64,000 nucleotides of DNA from Eubacteriales bacterium (GCA_045539335.1 JAZQFD010000007.1:89853-153852); one strand, 5' to 3'; shown: positions 44,784-50,016, counted from the stretch's first letter. Notes: a model not told the origin generated them from the sequence alone. Numbers and translations are program-made.

Positions 44784-44881
44784 GTGGAGATAAGCGGTAA
44801 CTCTGCGCAGCGGATTTTTTCGATTCGCTGACCTTGACCGCCATTCAAGCGCTCTCCCAACCCACGCAAAATTATACCCCC
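44784..44881 (-). pseudogene. degenerate tRNA-Ala(GGC)-like copy
   Basis: It shares three blocks with the intact tRNA-Ala at 49941-50016. These are the 5' acceptor tataccccc, a 20-nt identical block gccattcaagcgctctccca (44840-44859 = 49981-50000), and the 3' end gtggagataagcgg. The D- and T-arms are disrupted by insertions. Confidence 0.6.
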
Positions 44882-45003
44882 GAAAATAGCACCCACCCGT
44901 AGGTAATATCCCTACGGGCGCGGTTTTCTTTTGCTCTTTGGTAGTTGAGCATTTAGGCTTACTATGTTATAATTAAGTTAATTACAGTAAATAAATTGGA
45001 GGA

Positions 45004-45966
45004 ATGGCCATGAGTTCGAAAAAGCAAAAAAGTCTGTATCATTATTGCAGTTTGGATACCTTTTTAAATATTATAAAAAATTCATCGATTTGGTTATCTG
45101 ACATTCAAAAGTCCAATGATAGCAGAGAAATGGCCTGGTTTAGAGAAAAGTATTATGATTTCATATTGGACAAATATAATAATACTGATGATTTGACGGT
45201 AAAGTTAATTTGTGAACTTATTTTATCTATGGCAGTAACTGATGGTTATGAAAAATGTCCTTTGTGGTTACTTCCAGCAACGAAAACTAATAGCGAAGAA
45301 ATCGCCAATACTTTTTTCAGTTTACGTACATATGCTTTTTGCCTTAGTGAATTGCCGGATTCGTTAGGACAATGGAGAGGATATGCGGATAATGGTTGTG
45401 GTGTTGCAATAGGTTTCTCCCGTGAATATTTGGACGCTATTTCGGGGTATAGTTTACGCTGTCCGTCTTTTAATTTTTTAATTGGCAGTATTTCTTATAG
45501 AACTAATTTTTCTTCTTTATTCGAGAAAATGTTTGATATGCATGACAAAAATAAATTTGATGAATTCATTCTCAAATCAATGATAGATTTGACGCGCACA
45601 TCCGCGCTGTTTAAGCATCCGTCTTTTAAGGAGGAAAAGGAATGGAGAATCATTTATTCTATGGATGATTATGGACTCAATAGAGATATATTGACTTTTA
45701 AAGATTTCAGATCTATTAGTTCCGATAAATATAAGAAAAACTTTAGTGATCCAAAAATCGACTATATAGCTAAAGGGGGAAATATAATACCTCACATAGA
45801 AATAAAATTTAATGATCTCCCCAAAGCAATTGAAAGTATAATAATTGGCCCAAAATGCGAAGCAACAGAAAAAGACATACGTCATGTGCTTCTTCGATTT
45901 GGAGTATTGGATTCTTTTGAAGATTCCAAAATCAAAATTGTGCGTTCGGCGTCTTCTTATAGATGA
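45004..45966 (+). CDS. DUF2971-like protein (from memory), function unknown
   Basis: 320 aa. The N-terminus LYHYCSLDTFLNIIKNSSIWLSDIQKSNDSRE resembles the DUF2971 signature. The gene is visibly AT-rich and has its own promoter (TTGAGC, 17 nt, TATAAT) upstream. Confidence 0.6.
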   Translation: MAMSSKKQKSLYHYCSLDTFLNIIKNSSIWLSDIQKSNDSREMAWFREKYYDFILDKYNNTDDLTVKLICELILSMAVTDGYEKCPLWLLPATKTNSEEIANTFFSLRTYAFCLSELPDSLGQWRGYADNGCGVAIGFSREYLDAISGYSLRCPSFNFLIGSISYRTNFSSLFEKMFDMHDKNKFDEFILKSMIDLTRTSALFKHPSFKEEKEWRIIYSMDDYGLNRDILTFKDFRSISSDKYKKNFSDPKIDYIAKGGNIIPHIEIKFNDLPKAIESIIIGPKCEATEKDIRHVLLRFGVLDSFEDSKIKIVRSASSYR

Positions 45967-46051
45967 TTTTGCAAATGTTCCGATTTTAATTTGGCATATT
46001 CGTCAAAATAGACCTCCTTTGCTACAATATAGGCAAAGGAGGTAAAACGAT

Positions 46052-46099
46052 ATGGGAAAATTCATTGAAGCGTTTTATTACGGCAATCTCGATCCGTAG
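46052..46099 (+). pseudogene. 15-codon stub (MGKFIEAFYYGNLDP*), probable truncated gene start
   Basis: A strong AAGGAGG RBS precedes the ATG at 46052, and the frame reaches a premature TAG after 15 codons. The RBS lies in the inverted repeat cctcctttgc (46013-46022) / gcaaaggagg (46033-46042). Confidence 0.3.
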
Positions 46100-46188
46100 G
46101 TGCGCAGCGTCAACTAATATAATGGTAGAAAAACTCATGCAAGTATGGTATAATAACCTCAAATCAAAAGCGCATGGGAGGTCTAACG

Positions 46189-46689
46189 ATGAAAAAGACA
46201 TTAATTGTAGTCGATATGCAAAACGATTTTATTACTATGGCGCTCGGCACCAAAGAGGCGGTGGCTATCGTCCCCAAGGTCAAGGCAAAGATTCAGGAAT
46301 ACGCCCAAAACGGCGACGAGATTATTTTTACAAGAGATACCCACTTGGAAAACTATCTTGATACCACAGAGGGCAAACATCTACCCGTCCCACACTGTAT
46401 CAAGGGCACCAAAGGTTGGGAAATCGCCGACGGTCTTTACGTCGAGGGCGCAAAAATCATTGATAAGCCCAATTTTGGCTGGCCCCATTGGGATGAGGAA
46501 ACTCTTGAATGTGTGGAGTTGATCGGTCTTTGCACCGACATCTGCGTGGTTTCCAATGCTCTCATCATCAAAGCAACCTTCCCCGATGCGCAGGTGAAAG
46601 TCGATTCTGCTTGCTGCGCCGGTGTCACCCCCGAGAGCCACGAGGCTGCCTTAAAAACCATGCAAATGTGTCAGGTGGAAGTGGTATAA
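46189..46689 (+). CDS. isochorismatase-family cysteine hydrolase (nicotinamidase-like)
   Basis: Starts at MKKTLIVVDMQNDF after a GGGAGG RBS. The catalytic Cys context is LIGLCTDICV. Confidence 0.8.
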   Translation: MKKTLIVVDMQNDFITMALGTKEAVAIVPKVKAKIQEYAQNGDEIIFTRDTHLENYLDTTEGKHLPVPHCIKGTKGWEIADGLYVEGAKIIDKPNFGWPHWDEETLECVELIGLCTDICVVSNALIIKATFPDAQVKVDSACCAGVTPESHEAALKTMQMCQVEVV

Positions 46690-47427
46690 ATGATGAAGAA
46701 ATTATACGAAAAAAGCGAACTTTGGTTCGCTCTTGCCTGGATTATCGCCTATTGTGTCCTTGCGTCCGTTGGGGATAATCTGTCAAGCGATATCGGCATT
46801 TTAAAGGCGGTAACGTTGCCCATTTTGATCGCCCTTTCCGTAATCCTTTACCTGTTCGTAAAGAAGAACGGACTTGGGGAAAAATACGGTCTGTGTAAAC
46901 CGCAAATGTCGGCGTCGAAAATGCTGTATTACATTCCGCTGATCATTCTGCTCACCGCAAATTTTTGGTTCGGGTTCAAACTGAACGCATCGCTCCTCGA
47001 AACGGTGTTGTATGTTTTATCGATGCTTTGCGTCGGCTTTTTGGAAGAGATGATATTCCGCGGATTTCTGTTTCAGGCTATGGCGAAAAACGGCGTGAAA
47101 TCGGCAATTATTGTTTCAAGCCTTACCTTTGGTATCGGGCATATTATCAATCTTGTCAACGGCTCAGGTGCAGAACTTTTACCCAATCTTCTGCAGGTCG
47201 TCTATGCCGTTGCCGTCGGCTTTGCGTTTATGATGATCTATTACAAGACAAAAAGTTTGCTCGTATGCATTGCCACCCATAGTTTGTTTAATGCGGCAAG
47301 CGCTTTTGGCGCTGAGGCGGCAACAACGACTCAAACGATCTTTTCCGCCGTCCTGATTGCCTTTATTGCCGCCGCATACGCCGTATACATCGCAGTAATG
47401 GTTAAGGATAAAGAGGGTATACTATGA
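46690..47427 (+). CDS. CPBP family intramembrane glutamic endopeptidase
   Basis: Has the motifs EEMIFRGFLF, FGIGH and HSLFNA, and is multi-pass membrane. Confidence 0.85.
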   Translation: MMKKLYEKSELWFALAWIIAYCVLASVGDNLSSDIGILKAVTLPILIALSVILYLFVKKNGLGEKYGLCKPQMSASKMLYYIPLIILLTANFWFGFKLNASLLETVLYVLSMLCVGFLEEMIFRGFLFQAMAKNGVKSAIIVSSLTFGIGHIINLVNGSGAELLPNLLQVVYAVAVGFAFMMIYYKTKSLLVCIATHSLFNAASAFGAEAATTTQTIFSAVLIAFIAAAYAVYIAVMVKDKEGIL

Positions 47428-48963: not shown

Positions 48964-48993
48964 CCGAGCAGAGCGTTAACTCGCTCTGCTCGG
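48964..48993. repeat. GC-rich palindromic hairpin, copy 2 (terminator of the P-loop kinase gene)
   Basis: ccgagcagagcgttaactcgctctgctcgg. Its arms match those of the hairpin at 43975-44000. On the minus strand it is followed by a T-run. Confidence 0.6.
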
Positions 48994-49034
48994 CTGAATT
49001 GGATTTGTATGCGACAACAGATTTGAATTTGTCG

Positions 49035-49547
49035 TTATAAACTAATATTGATTTCATAGTTGTTTTCAATGAGTATATAGTTCACATTATACTTTTGTGC
49101 GAGGTCAAGCATATCGGCATTGTCTTCCAATACACTTTCTAGAGTGCACCATTCATCATCTAAACGGTTTTCAATGACGTTTGCATATTTCTTTATGTCA
49201 GCAAAGTGATTTTTGATATATTCCTCACTCATTATAAGACAGTAATATTTTATGCTTTCAAGATATTCGGAGTCAAAGTCTTTCTGCCAATCGAATGGAA
49301 TATAGCAACCTTCGACAATCAAGTTCTGATTATTCTCAATAGCAGTTTTTATCATTTCACGAACAATCGGCCACAAGTATTCGGTTAATTCATTGTCATC
49401 CATAGGGGAAAGCTCTGTGTTGCAGCTACGAATTAAACCCATTTTCAGATGGTCTATTGACAGATACGGATAATTATATTTTTCAAGCAACTTTTGAGCA
49501 AGTGCCGTTTTGCCTGTATGGGATGCTCCCGTAATTAAAACAATCAT
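49035..49547 (-). CDS. P-loop NTPase / small-molecule kinase-like protein
   Basis: Walker A ITGASHTGKT. About 170 aa and AT-rich. A strong promoter lies upstream on the minus strand (TTGAAA, 17 nt, TGgTATAAT). Confidence 0.7.
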   Translation of the reverse strand: MIVLITGASHTGKTALAQKLLEKYNYPYLSIDHLKMGLIRSCNTELSPMDDNELTEYLWPIVREMIKTAIENNQNLIVEGCYIPFDWQKDFDSEYLESIKYYCLIMSEEYIKNHFADIKKYANVIENRLDDEWCTLESVLEDNADMLDLAQKYNVNYILIENNYEINISL

Positions 49548-49668
49548 TATCACACCTACAAATTCTTATTTATTGAACTGATTATACCACACGCACAACA
49601 ACTTTTCAATGCATACAAAAAATACCCGCTCACTACGAGCGGGCAAAAAATAAAACTTGACGAACCAG

Positions 49669-49694
49669 TGGTGGAGATAAGCGGTAACTCTGCG
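49669..49694 (-). repeat. direct repeat of the tRNA-Ala 3' end (att-like remnant)
   Basis: tggtggagataagcgg (49669-49684) is identical to tRNA positions 49941-49956. The 24-nt gtggagataagcggtaactctgcg (49671-49694) is identical to 44784-44807. A further 12-nt piece, gataagcgggat, lies at 49724-49735. Confidence 0.65.
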
Positions 49695-49902
49695 TCAAGA
49701 CAACAAGGATTTGTGCGCAGTGGGATAAGCGGGATACTCCGCGAGCCGTGGGCTCGCTCCGTGACACCTTCGTATTTTCTGCCCCCGCATGGGGCATTTT
49801 GCTTCAAGAAGCAAAAAAGCAGGCTTTTGCCTGCTGAAAATACGGGTGTTCTGACCTGCGCATTGCGTTGCAATGCGCAGTCGCCCCGCAGGGTCTCCGC
49901 CA

Positions 49903-49940
49903 AATAATAAAGGCACACCATTTGGTGTGCCTTTATTATT
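49903..49940 (-). terminator. hairpin immediately after the tRNA-Ala 3' end
   Basis: aataataaaggcacacca ttt ggtgtgcctttattatt, a long perfect stem. Confidence 0.6.
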
Positions 49941-50016
49941 TGGTGGAGATAAGCGGGATCGAACCGCTGACCTCTTGAATGCCATTCAAGCGCTCTCCCA
50001 GCTGAGCTATACCCCC
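49941..50016 (-). tRNA. tRNA-Ala (anticodon GGC), CCA encoded
   Basis: The reverse complement GGGGGTATAGCTCAGCTGGGAGAGCGCTTGAATGGCATTCAAGAGGTCAGCGGTTCGATCCCGCTTATCTCCACCA folds as a cloverleaf by hand. It has the G3:U70 Ala identity pair and the anticodon loop ATGGCAT. Confidence 0.9.

Follow-up and report, generated by a model that had tools for sequence, protein, structure and literature searches.

A tRNA-Ala-anchored island in a Eubacteriales bacterium as a probable recombinase-less remnant of an integrative element

Background

The stretch of DNA analysed here, referred to as the window, comprises 64,000 nucleotides (nt) of a Eubacteriales bacterium (GCA_045539335.1, JAZQFD010000007.1:89853-153852), and all positions in it are counted from its first letter. 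At 44784-50016 it carries an island bounded at one end by an intact transfer RNA (tRNA) gene, tRNA-Ala(GGC), and at the other by a degenerate tRNA-like sequence in the same orientation (copy A), with short copies of the tRNA 3' end, promoter modules and a set of protein-coding genes in between (Table 1). An original prediction, made from the sequence, had explained this arrangement by successive site-specific integrations at the tRNA 3' end, with the alternative that copy A is the ancestral tRNA, inactivated by insertion. Both proposals were examined by comparing the island with related genomes and with viral contigs.

Methods

Relatives were gathered by a scan with the neighbouring deacetylase and by context look-ups with homologues of the neighbouring XRE-family regulator, which returned related metagenome contigs of Clostridia/Eubacteriales (loci with the prefix L); the four most informative ones include L007, L148 and L001. 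Exact-protein look-ups with the XRE, deacetylase and MerR proteins of the window matched no contig in the collections, where there is no same-species relative. The tRNA-Ala sequence was aligned locally against 43.8-50.1 kilobases (kb), and significance was judged against 100 shuffles (best shuffle score 27). The viral set consists of the IMG/VR contigs that contain the exact 3' 32 nt of tRNA-Ala(GGC), mostly as partial copies or at contig ends.

The tRNA-Ala gene and its copies

The tRNA-Ala(GGC) gene is called by both ARAGORN and Rfam where it had been predicted, and the flank upstream of it has homologues ahead of tRNA-Ala in L002, L005 and L148; its promoter is shared with the intact tRNAs of these three loci and of L007. 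In copy A, the block at 44820-44859 aligns with tRNA positions 17-58 at a local score of 53 and includes a 20-nt identity (44840-44859 = 49981-50000), a 14-nt piece of the 3' end (CCGCTTATCTCCAC, 44784-44797) scores 28, and GGGGGTATA at 44873-44881 is collinear with the rest and by itself not significant. Neither ARAGORN nor Rfam, even at E ≤ 10, recognises a tRNA in copy A, in which the T arm is missing and the 5' strand of the D-stem is replaced, and the promoter scan found no promoter ahead of it. The cloverleaf detectors thus agree with the earlier view that the degenerate copy is not a functional tRNA gene.

Of the shorter pieces, the perfect 16-nt copy of the tRNA 3' end at the end of copy B was recovered by local alignment as predicted, and the second one, given before as 12 nt at 49724-49735, is present as well, but its better bounds are 49720-49735 and its score is only borderline; it is kept in L001, L146 and L148. 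The identical 24-nt junction reported for both copies (GTGGAGATAAGCGGTAACTCTGCG, with the copy-B instance at 49671-49694) occurs exactly twice in the window, against an expectation of zero even at three mismatches. Searches with the 24-mer, the short copies and the spacers gave no dispersed matches; as foreseen, the repeats are not a scattered family. The duplicated sequence also continues beyond the tRNA pieces, into a terminator-plus-promoter module that was absent from the original prediction: 44712-44762 and 49571-49621 (repeat D1) are 75% identical, and both hold sigma-70-type promoters that reach 11/12 in the promoter scan.

Table 1. Position and evidence of the features in and around the tRNA-Ala island of the window
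Feature	Positions	Strand	Evidence	Remarks
Terminator, promoter P2 (44722-44750), 5' untranslated region (5'UTR) and XRE/zinc-ribbon regulator gene (44006-44617)	44006-44775	-		Host-side flank
Copy A, tRNA-like	44784-44881	-	Local alignment; Rfam/ARAGORN negative	Same strand as tRNA
End of host-type trailer (spacer L) and old 3'-end remnant	44784-44822	-	Alignment A5 with L148, L007
Displaced host tRNA 3' part, positions ~18-55	44823-44858	-	Local alignment, alignment A5	Anticodon loop mutated, cut in T-loop
Putative element-derived pseudo-tRNA arm GGGGGTATAATTTTGCGTGGGTT	44859-44881	-		Acceptor-like; D-arm 5' half replaced and 6 nt longer
DUF2971 gene	45004-45966	+	Pfam DUF2971 4e-12; PADLOC candidate PDC-S31 6e-11	33% GC (guanine plus cytosine); variable cassette adjoining pseudo-tRNA
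15-codon stub, truncated N-terminus of a DUF6809-type gene	46053-46100	+	MGKFIEAFYYGNLDP plus stop, against L140 DUF6809 protein MANFIEEFYYGNLNPQ..
Isochorismatase	46189-46689	+	Pfam	Conserved island member
CPBP/Rce1-like	46690-47427	+	Pfam	Variable
Rhodanese	47424-47819	+	Pfam	Conserved island member
MerR/TipAS	47877-48617	+	Pfam	Conserved island member
Peptide deformylase C-terminal fragment (..QHEIDHCNGLLI plus stop)	~48818-48895	+	Translation (ENKTFTGWSAQIIQHEIDHCNGLLI plus stop)
P-loop NTPase/kinase-like gene	49035-49553	-	Weak AAA_18, AAA_33, Zeta_toxin matches	35% GC; variable cargo
Terminator (49623-49645) and promoter P1 (49581-49609)	49571-49645	-	Promoter scan	Drives P-loop gene; paralogue of XRE promoter module
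Copy B: perfect 16-nt tRNA 3'-end copy (49669-49684) and arm CGCAGAGTTA	49669-49694	-	Local score 32	End of trailer module
Degenerate copy of tRNA T-loop-to-3'-end segment ATCCCGCTTATCCCAC	49720-49735	-	Local score 27, equal to best shuffle	Borderline
Spacer W, hairpin-rich trailer 3' of tRNA	49695-49893	-	Fold z -6.8	Part of putative element-borne module
Long palindrome: tRNA 3' end, terminator hairpin and inverted degenerate tRNA 3'-end copy GGCGGAGA	49894-49949	.	Inverted repeat I1, 27-nt arms, 96% complementary
tRNA-Ala(GGC)	49941-50016	-	ARAGORN; Rfam 61.4 bits	Read as attL
tRNA-Ala promoter TTGACA-17-TATATT	50033-50061	-	Promoter scan 11/12	Host-side flank of insertion

Empty and occupied sites in related genomes

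An empty site had been expected in relatives, and L007, which belongs to a different species (deacetylase 57% identical), has one: its order is promoter, tRNA-Ala, terminator, a GC-rich trailer of ~190 nt ending in GTGCAGGGTTACCGCTTATCTCTAC, terminator, promoter, XRE and deacetylase, with no island. The occupied site is found in L148. Its first part consists of the intact tRNA, the terminator, an inverted 15-nt 3'-end copy and spacer W with GCAGAGTTACCGCTTATCTCCACCA at its end; the middle is occupied by TipAS, rhodanese, AAA_18, isochorismatase and two unknown genes; and in the last part GGGGGTATAATTTTGCGTGGGTT leads directly into tRNA positions 17-76, after which come the terminator again, a trailer of the L007 type with GCAGAGTTCCCGTTTATCTCCACCA at its end, and XRE. 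Positions 17-76 and the terminator are 100% identical between both L148 copies, which gives a 60-nt perfect tRNA repeat. The island borders are therefore formed by a block running from tRNA position 17 through the 3' end into the terminator, and their earlier placement at the 16-nt 3'-end cores does not hold. From the comparison of L007 with L148 we infer that the intact tRNA is one of the two attachment (att) sites of an inserted element, attL, and joins host positions 1-16 to element-borne positions 17-76. The crossover would lie at or 3' of T17/G18, the point from which the host and element copies are identical.

The arm GGGGGTATAATTTTGCGTGGGTT is identical in L148 and near-identical in L001, L006, L138 and L139, and the DNA directly upstream of it differs in every genome (six, the window included). 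Derivatives of the pseudo-tRNA are common among these loci: in L001 it is fused at GGTCAG to spacer W, L006, L138 and L139 show the same arm with decay to a varying degree, and in L002 a related arm (GGGGGTATAAAATTGCTTATATC) with 61 perfect nt brackets a 1.1-kb toxin-immunity cassette. Copy A itself corresponds, in alignment A5, to a pseudo-tRNA of the L148 type minus ~230 nt. A TCGA microhomology marks the deletion, which begins in the T-loop (..GGTCAGCGaaTCGA) and reaches the trailer end (AAAAATCCGCTGCGCAGAGTTACCGCTTATCTCCAC), so that the trailer end fused there accounts for the apparent T-arm insertion, and the 3' acceptor is borrowed. What had been described as a degenerate tRNA at 44784-44881 thus keeps its position, its 5' acceptor piece and its 20-nt block, but not a 3' acceptor of its own or insertions in the D- and T-arms, and by alignment copy A is a conserved type of pseudo-tRNA (GGGGGTATAATTTTGCGTGGGTT plus tRNA positions 17-76), not a tRNA with insertions. 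The proposal that it represents the ancestral tRNA is correct insofar as its part matching tRNA positions 17-52 sits at the place of the ancestral 3' part, but the 5' 23 nt and the upstream flank are foreign and no tRNA promoter is present.

A remnant of the tRNA 3' end with its arm already lies 3' of the tRNA in the empty site of L007 and recurs at the ends of both L148 trailer modules, and is therefore older than the island; the same motif, seen as copy B in the window, closes the trailers of L007, L146 and L148. The 24-nt junction is present twice because it ends a trailer module that is held in two paralogous copies. BLAST orthology with L007 extends as far as window position 44822.

On balance, we favour the reading that 44784-50016 is what remains, fixed and without a recombinase, of an integrative element that recombined into tRNA-Ala(GGC) within tRNA positions 17-76. 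The restored tRNA, the copy of its 3' part in the same orientation at the opposite end and the empty site in a relative are all features of elements that target tRNA genes; a recombinase gene inside is missing, in line with the earlier description of a tRNA-Ala-anchored insertion without a remaining integrase. Genes for integration and for transfer are both absent. Of the presumed att sites, attL is intact, and attR retains the arm and the first ~19 nt of the host half, with a changed anticodon loop and the rest deleted.

On this reading, comparison of the empty and occupied states shows the following course of events. An L007-like ancestor carried the promoter, tRNA-Ala, the terminator, a trailer of ~190 nt with the old 3'-end remnant, and XRE, and the incoming element brought a full-length pseudo-tRNA, a terminator and a paralogous trailer with the same remnant. 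The exchange joined the host promoter and the first 16 nt to the element 3' part, yielding the working tRNA at 49941-50016, the element trailer and copy B, and the element arm to the host 3' part, yielding the pseudo-tRNA (attR) beside XRE, a state that is complete in L148. In the window lineage, the ~230-nt deletion then fused the T-loop of the pseudo-tRNA to the trailer end and so produced copy A and the second 24-nt junction.

The island was also found in inverted form. L146 (1-4200) and L148 (130-4450) encode an identical XRE protein, and the whole island of ~4 kb is inverted between them, with break points in inverted tRNA 3'-end copies (CGCTTATCTCCACCA), of which the one in L148 is perfect over 15 nt; a polymorphic base puts the exchange inside the 16-nt core, and ~55 nt of inverted homology, palindromic terminator included, are on offer. 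A simple inversion was considered for the opposite tRNA orientation in L002 and L005 and was rejected, as the gene order does not fit one event. In L137 (3049-3140), a tRNA-Ala broken by 'NN' with a duplicated D-arm segment is almost certainly a scaffolding artefact and not a pseudo-tRNA.

Much of this could be imagined without a mobile element, if the tRNA-trailer-promoter module had been duplicated locally, the downstream copy had decayed, and genes had been swapped with related strains by homologous recombination via the repeats and the conserved genes. The duplicated unit is indeed long (tRNA, terminator, trailer end and promoter), core cargo is conserved across genomes while single cassettes alone differ, the window has no recombinase, and the inverted homology with its palindromic terminator would permit the L146/L148 inversion. 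A duplication does not, however, fit a tRNA promoter present only at the upstream copy, a pseudo-copy that starts exactly at position 1 behind a different sequence in every genome, or spacers W and L, which are alike only at their ends and otherwise unrelated. Nor does it fit the recurrence of the same D-arm design (5-6 nt longer, GGGGG kept) in at least three unrelated arm families, where serine recombinase genes accompany five of the six viral examples (see below). We consider local duplication rather unlikely as the origin of the island; homologous recombination may well account for later cassette turnover.

Attachment copies and recombinases in viral contigs

The tRNA-Ala(GGC) gene serves very often as an attachment site: the last 32 nt of its 3' end occur unchanged in at least 120 IMG/VR contigs. 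The copies form three groups: full tRNAs, a majority in which identity starts at the anticodon stem, and a small class of full-length pseudo-tRNAs with a replaced 5' half of the D-arm. Anticodon-stem-type copies were adjoined by a tyrosine integrase in all nine sampled viral loci. Copy A does not belong to this anticodon-loop class, as its identity starts in the D-loop and a pseudo-acceptor precedes it. Four members of the pseudo-tRNA class, L042, L054, L125 and L053, have a large serine recombinase gene (Resolvase, Recombinase and Zn_ribbon_recom domains) whose end lies 55-150 nt upstream of the pseudo-tRNA and on its strand, and a truncated C-terminal part of such a gene lies beside the pseudo-tRNA of L152, which brings the linked viral loci to five of six. 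Two tandem serine recombinase genes adjoin the att copy in L042 and L054. Close homologues of these recombinases (at least 44% identity over ~490 residues or more) were detected in one other fetched locus, L110, with distant or weak matches in L111 (~25%) and L089 (27% over 158 residues) and none in the window.

Two contigs combine both kinds of copies or enzymes. In L042 (5233-9919), two serine recombinase genes and the pseudo-tRNA are followed by a convergent tyrosine integrase, consistent with the accretion of a second element at the displaced copy, and L026 and L053 come from one 59-kb contig (IMGVR_UViG_3300029786_000307) that bears a pseudo-tRNA and a partial copy of the anticodon class.

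The pseudo-tRNAs share a further property with copy A: GGGGG and GGGAG, which are 12 nt apart in the tRNA, stand 18 nt apart in copy A, and every other pseudo-tRNA has a distance of 17-18 nt (at least three unrelated arm families). In the attP half-sites of serine integrases, the zinc-ribbon motif lies 5 base pairs (bp) further from the crossover than in attB (Rutherford et al. 2013, PMC3783163), and the sequence of copy A agrees with such a displacement of the outer motif by ~5 bp, a matter of consistency and not proof of binding. The element was probably integrated by a serine recombinase. More tentatively, pseudo-tRNAs with a 5-6-nt-longer D-arm half could be natural attP/attR sites of large, often paired serine recombinases that integrate in the D-loop region of tRNA-Ala(GGC), with GGGGGT as the outer motif, spaced as in attB on the tRNA and as in attP on the element; after loss of the recombinase such a site would persist as a long-lived, invertible slot for defence and toxin cassettes among gut and rumen Clostridia. 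A limited literature search found no description of serine recombinases that target a tRNA gene at the D-loop in such a way.

We infer that a large serine recombinase, with its cut in the D-loop region, would have been the enzyme. The gene for it, to be expected directly 5' of the pseudo-tRNA, would subsequently have been lost, with the truncated gene of L152 as a possible intermediate, and the emptied position would have become a slot for the exchange of defence or toxin genes, such as DUF2971 in the window. An island of this kind would no longer be self-mobile and could at most be moved by a matching recombinase in trans.

Several observations weigh against the insertion of such an element or against a serine recombinase as its enzyme. 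Pfam annotation of the island genes and their neighbours and tblastn with tyrosine and serine recombinases detected no recombinase gene or fragment in the window, and no serine recombinase stands beside the window-type arm there or in L001, L006, L138 or L148. None of the viral contigs scanned for this arm (GGGGGTATAATTTTGCG..) carries it; the link with serine recombinases comes from other arm families, and one of the six viral loci, L153, has a pseudo-tRNA with no recombinase nearby. For serine recombinases, 60-100 nt of identity to one side of the crossover would be unusual, and it would make the P' and B' half-sites identical, against the prediction of the published model. The comparators are without exception metagenome assemblies, and presence and absence of the island are seen between species only. 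Finally, most of the cargo is backbone-like in composition and shared across species, so either the event is old or the region spreads by homologous recombination.

The explanation given first, in its most explicit form, invokes successive tyrosine-integrase elements at the 16-nt tRNA-Ala 3' end (crossover in CCGCTTATCTCCACCA), copies A and B being attR cores that share one element arm and the integrase modules having been deleted later. The short 3'-end copies do share an arm, and the 24-mer is 100% identical as compared with ~75% in its flanks; nested partial copies exist in viral contigs (the contig of L026 and L053, and the tyrosine integrase downstream of the pseudo-tRNA in L042); tandem accretion with recombinase-less remnants is documented (PMC5704250); and the L146/L148 inversion junction lies inside the 16-nt core. 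Against this, the remnant with its arm predates the island, the DNA directly upstream of junction A is orthologous to the L007 trailer end and not to an element, and the nine sampled tyrosine-integrase copies all start at the anticodon stem instead of the 3' end. Viral contigs scanned for the 24-nt junction, or for the 16-mer in a non-tRNA context, yielded nothing or chance coding matches, and in the phage GenBank collection only the tRNA itself was matched. Successive integrations at the 3' end are thus no longer upheld and, in our judgement, improbable.

Trailers and the possibility of a structured RNA

Two unrelated hairpin-rich trailers of ~200 nt each are present at these loci, one 3' of the tRNA (window 49695-49893 on the minus strand, L148 264-462, L001 2650-2794) and the other 3' of the pseudo-tRNA (L007 7340-7495, L148 4267-4425). 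Spacer W of the window is 95% identical to that of L001 and 77% to that of L148. Several trailer stems preserve their pairing through double changes or give way to different hairpins, and compensatory changes affect seven of the 56 predicted pairs of spacer W, as counted from only three distinct sequences. Neither trailer W nor trailer L matched Rfam, and in sequence scans both were confined to close relatives; Rfam searches of copy A and the trailer at permissive thresholds returned only chance-level NrrF, Leu_leader and permuted transfer-messenger RNA (tmRNA) matches, all far under the thresholds. A tmRNA-like or retron-like RNA, in which the 5' GGCGGAGA would pair with the 3' end, was rejected: this pairing would cover the CCA end and is that of an inverted DNA repeat, ARAGORN calls no tmRNA, and a reverse transcriptase is missing.

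It is nevertheless conceivable that copy A or the hairpin-rich trailer acts as a tRNA-like or structured RNA, for instance as a decoy, a regulator or a signal for processing. In L148, the undeleted pseudo-tRNA reaches 37.4 bits with the Rfam tRNA model (threshold 29), the 5' strand of the acceptor is kept in all versions, and the trailer folds well and shows some compensatory changes. Copy A, however, has lost its T arm and all resemblance that the tRNA detectors would recognise, no promoter precedes it, and its fold is no better than shuffles (z -1.6). Single-sequence folds of pseudo-tRNAs are uninformative, and even the real tRNA is not set apart from shuffles. The copy is decaying in L006 and has suffered internal deletions in L001 and the window, and the covariation comes from two to three distinct sequences. 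A functional RNA is unlikely for copy A, and for the two candidates together we hold this explanation to be very improbable.

Cargo genes and the variable slot

The gene content of the island agrees with what had been proposed, including the deformylase fragment, which we take to be such from the known HExxH motif of that family, and the 15-codon stub, the DNA of which is conserved in L001, L006 and L140. The AT-rich character of the DUF2971 and P-loop genes was likewise confirmed (neighbours 45-52% GC, whole window 48%), and these are the only genes that deviate in composition, the remaining cargo having 45-49% GC. A recent patchwork across the whole enclosed 5 kb can be discarded: the isochorismatase, rhodanese and TipAS/MerR genes keep the same place and order in L006, L140, L142, L146 and L148 with 86-96% identity (DNA or protein), as compared with just 54-78% for the flanking deacetylase, and only DUF2971, the P-loop gene and CPBP are variable. 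As the core cargo is shared across genomes, the island is old and shared. In L146 and L148, an AAA_18 gene stands in place of CPBP. The P-loop gene of the window is missing from the islands of the relatives; that it might be a moved copy of this AAA_18 gene was rejected, the two not being homologous. DUF2971, which is of defence type, and the P-loop gene have probably arrived recently.

Comparison across genomes also reveals a variable slot 5' of the pseudo-tRNA. It is occupied by DUF2971 (PADLOC candidate PDC-S31) in the window, AbiH in L006, a MuF-ribonuclease with barstar in L138 and L002, and genes with no known function in L001 and L148; the variable genes are mostly of defence or toxin types. 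An RtcB-DUF2828 cassette lies between the pseudo-tRNA/trailer module and XRE in L001 and, with WYL-type genes, between isochorismatase and XRE in L142. Unusually short tRNAs (Leu-CAA, Arg-TCG and Ile-TAT, 69-74 nt) were called by ARAGORN in L142 (6150-6736), L001 (5819-5889), L148 (3997-4065) and L146 (166-234). Those of L142 and L001 adjoin RtcB-DUF2828/DUF7788 cassettes (with the WYL-type genes in L142), and the lone Ile-TAT call of L148 and L146 adjoins the pseudo-tRNA and unknown genes. Two of the five calls reach the Rfam tRNA threshold, and they could be tRNA-like RNAs tied to an RNA-repair module.

The XRE module next to the pseudo-tRNA is orthologous in L001, L003, L007, L008, L140 and L146-148. 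Its regulator has 89-97% identity across genomes in which the deacetylase next to it has 54-78%, and more than 7,600 close homologues of it are known. It occurs in varied genomic contexts, with its promoter and 5'UTR retained. The XRE promoter and the start of its 5'UTR are duplicated, the second copy driving the AT-rich P-loop gene, and a third version precedes another cassette in L001; cassettes at the island seem to arrive behind, or to carry, one shared promoter module. Directly upstream of the tRNA promoter, window 50166-53810 (plus strand) encodes a 1214-amino-acid protein with DUF4062, NACHT-like P-loop and TPR parts that has no PADLOC match and is missing from all related loci, which makes this side of the tRNA variable as well. 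A bacterial small signal recognition particle RNA (12380-12480, plus strand, Rfam 61.9 bits) is unconnected with the tRNA-Ala island.

Comparison with known systems

The odd tRNA-like sequence at copy A can be explained as a scar of ordinary kind, though one that resembles the site of an uncommon type of integrase, and 44.8-50.0 kb is marked as a hot spot with variable genes. More generally, tRNA-derived att copies may be sorted by where identity starts and by their neighbours, those starting at the anticodon stem pointing to tyrosine integrases and full-length pseudo-tRNAs with a lengthened D region to serine recombinases; the latter association is an interesting lead outside the window. If integration by serine recombinases is correct, these loci would offer a natural setting in which to test the attP/attB spacing rule, as well as new recombinase/site pairs on a conserved tRNA gene, possibly useful in the engineering of Clostridia.

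Williams (2002) reportedly distinguished sublocation classes for integration in tRNA genes; in such islands and prophages, the restored tRNA is attL and the displaced 3' copy attR. Common cores of 25-76 bp are known from tRNA-integrated elements (PMC8092301). The island resembles tRNA islands and prophages in that its two ends are an intact tRNA and a partial copy in the same orientation, the 3' part was apparently supplied by the element, a relative has an empty site, and many phages use the same tRNA. It is unlike them in that the window has no integrase, the repeat starts in the D-loop instead of the anticodon loop, T-loop or 3' end, the displaced copy has a pseudo 5' acceptor, and the cargo is mostly host-like in composition.

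The site design recalls that of serine integrases (Rutherford et al. 2013, PMC3783163), as the element half-site has GGGGGT 5-6 bp further out from the presumed crossover than the tRNA half-site (~17-23 versus 10-16 bp), but the shift affects one half-site only, because the other half is identical in element and host. The whole-island inversion between inverted tRNA 3'-end copies in L146 and L148 is reminiscent of the integrase-driven inversions between tRNA-derived sites in Thermococcales (PMC5495485); it differs from them in being bacterial, of ~4 kb, and found in these relatives rather than the window, and with ~55 nt of inverted homology on offer RecA may be responsible.

With cis-mobilisable elements (CIMEs) and the tandem accretion of integrative and conjugative or mobilisable elements (PMC5704250), the island has in common nested remnants of several events at one target gene. 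Unlike in CIMEs, one att copy of the window is damaged (internal deletion, anticodon-loop changes), and there is no partner integrative and conjugative element in the window. The staphylococcal cassette chromosome (SCC) at rlmH (orfX) is moved by the paired large serine recombinases CcrA/CcrB, with a repeat of ~15-18 nt; the 3' end of the target is restored on insertion, and recombinase-less pseudo-SCC elements gather in tandem with short target repeats. A recombinase-less remnant at a conserved target and the tandem serine recombinase pairs beside the att copy in L042 and L054 are the points of likeness, whereas the tRNA-gene target, the 60-100-nt repeat and the occurrence in gut and rumen Clostridia are different, and the tie of these recombinases to the window island is indirect. 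The island is closest in concept to CIMEs and pseudo-SCC elements, and would represent a known kind of genome scar.

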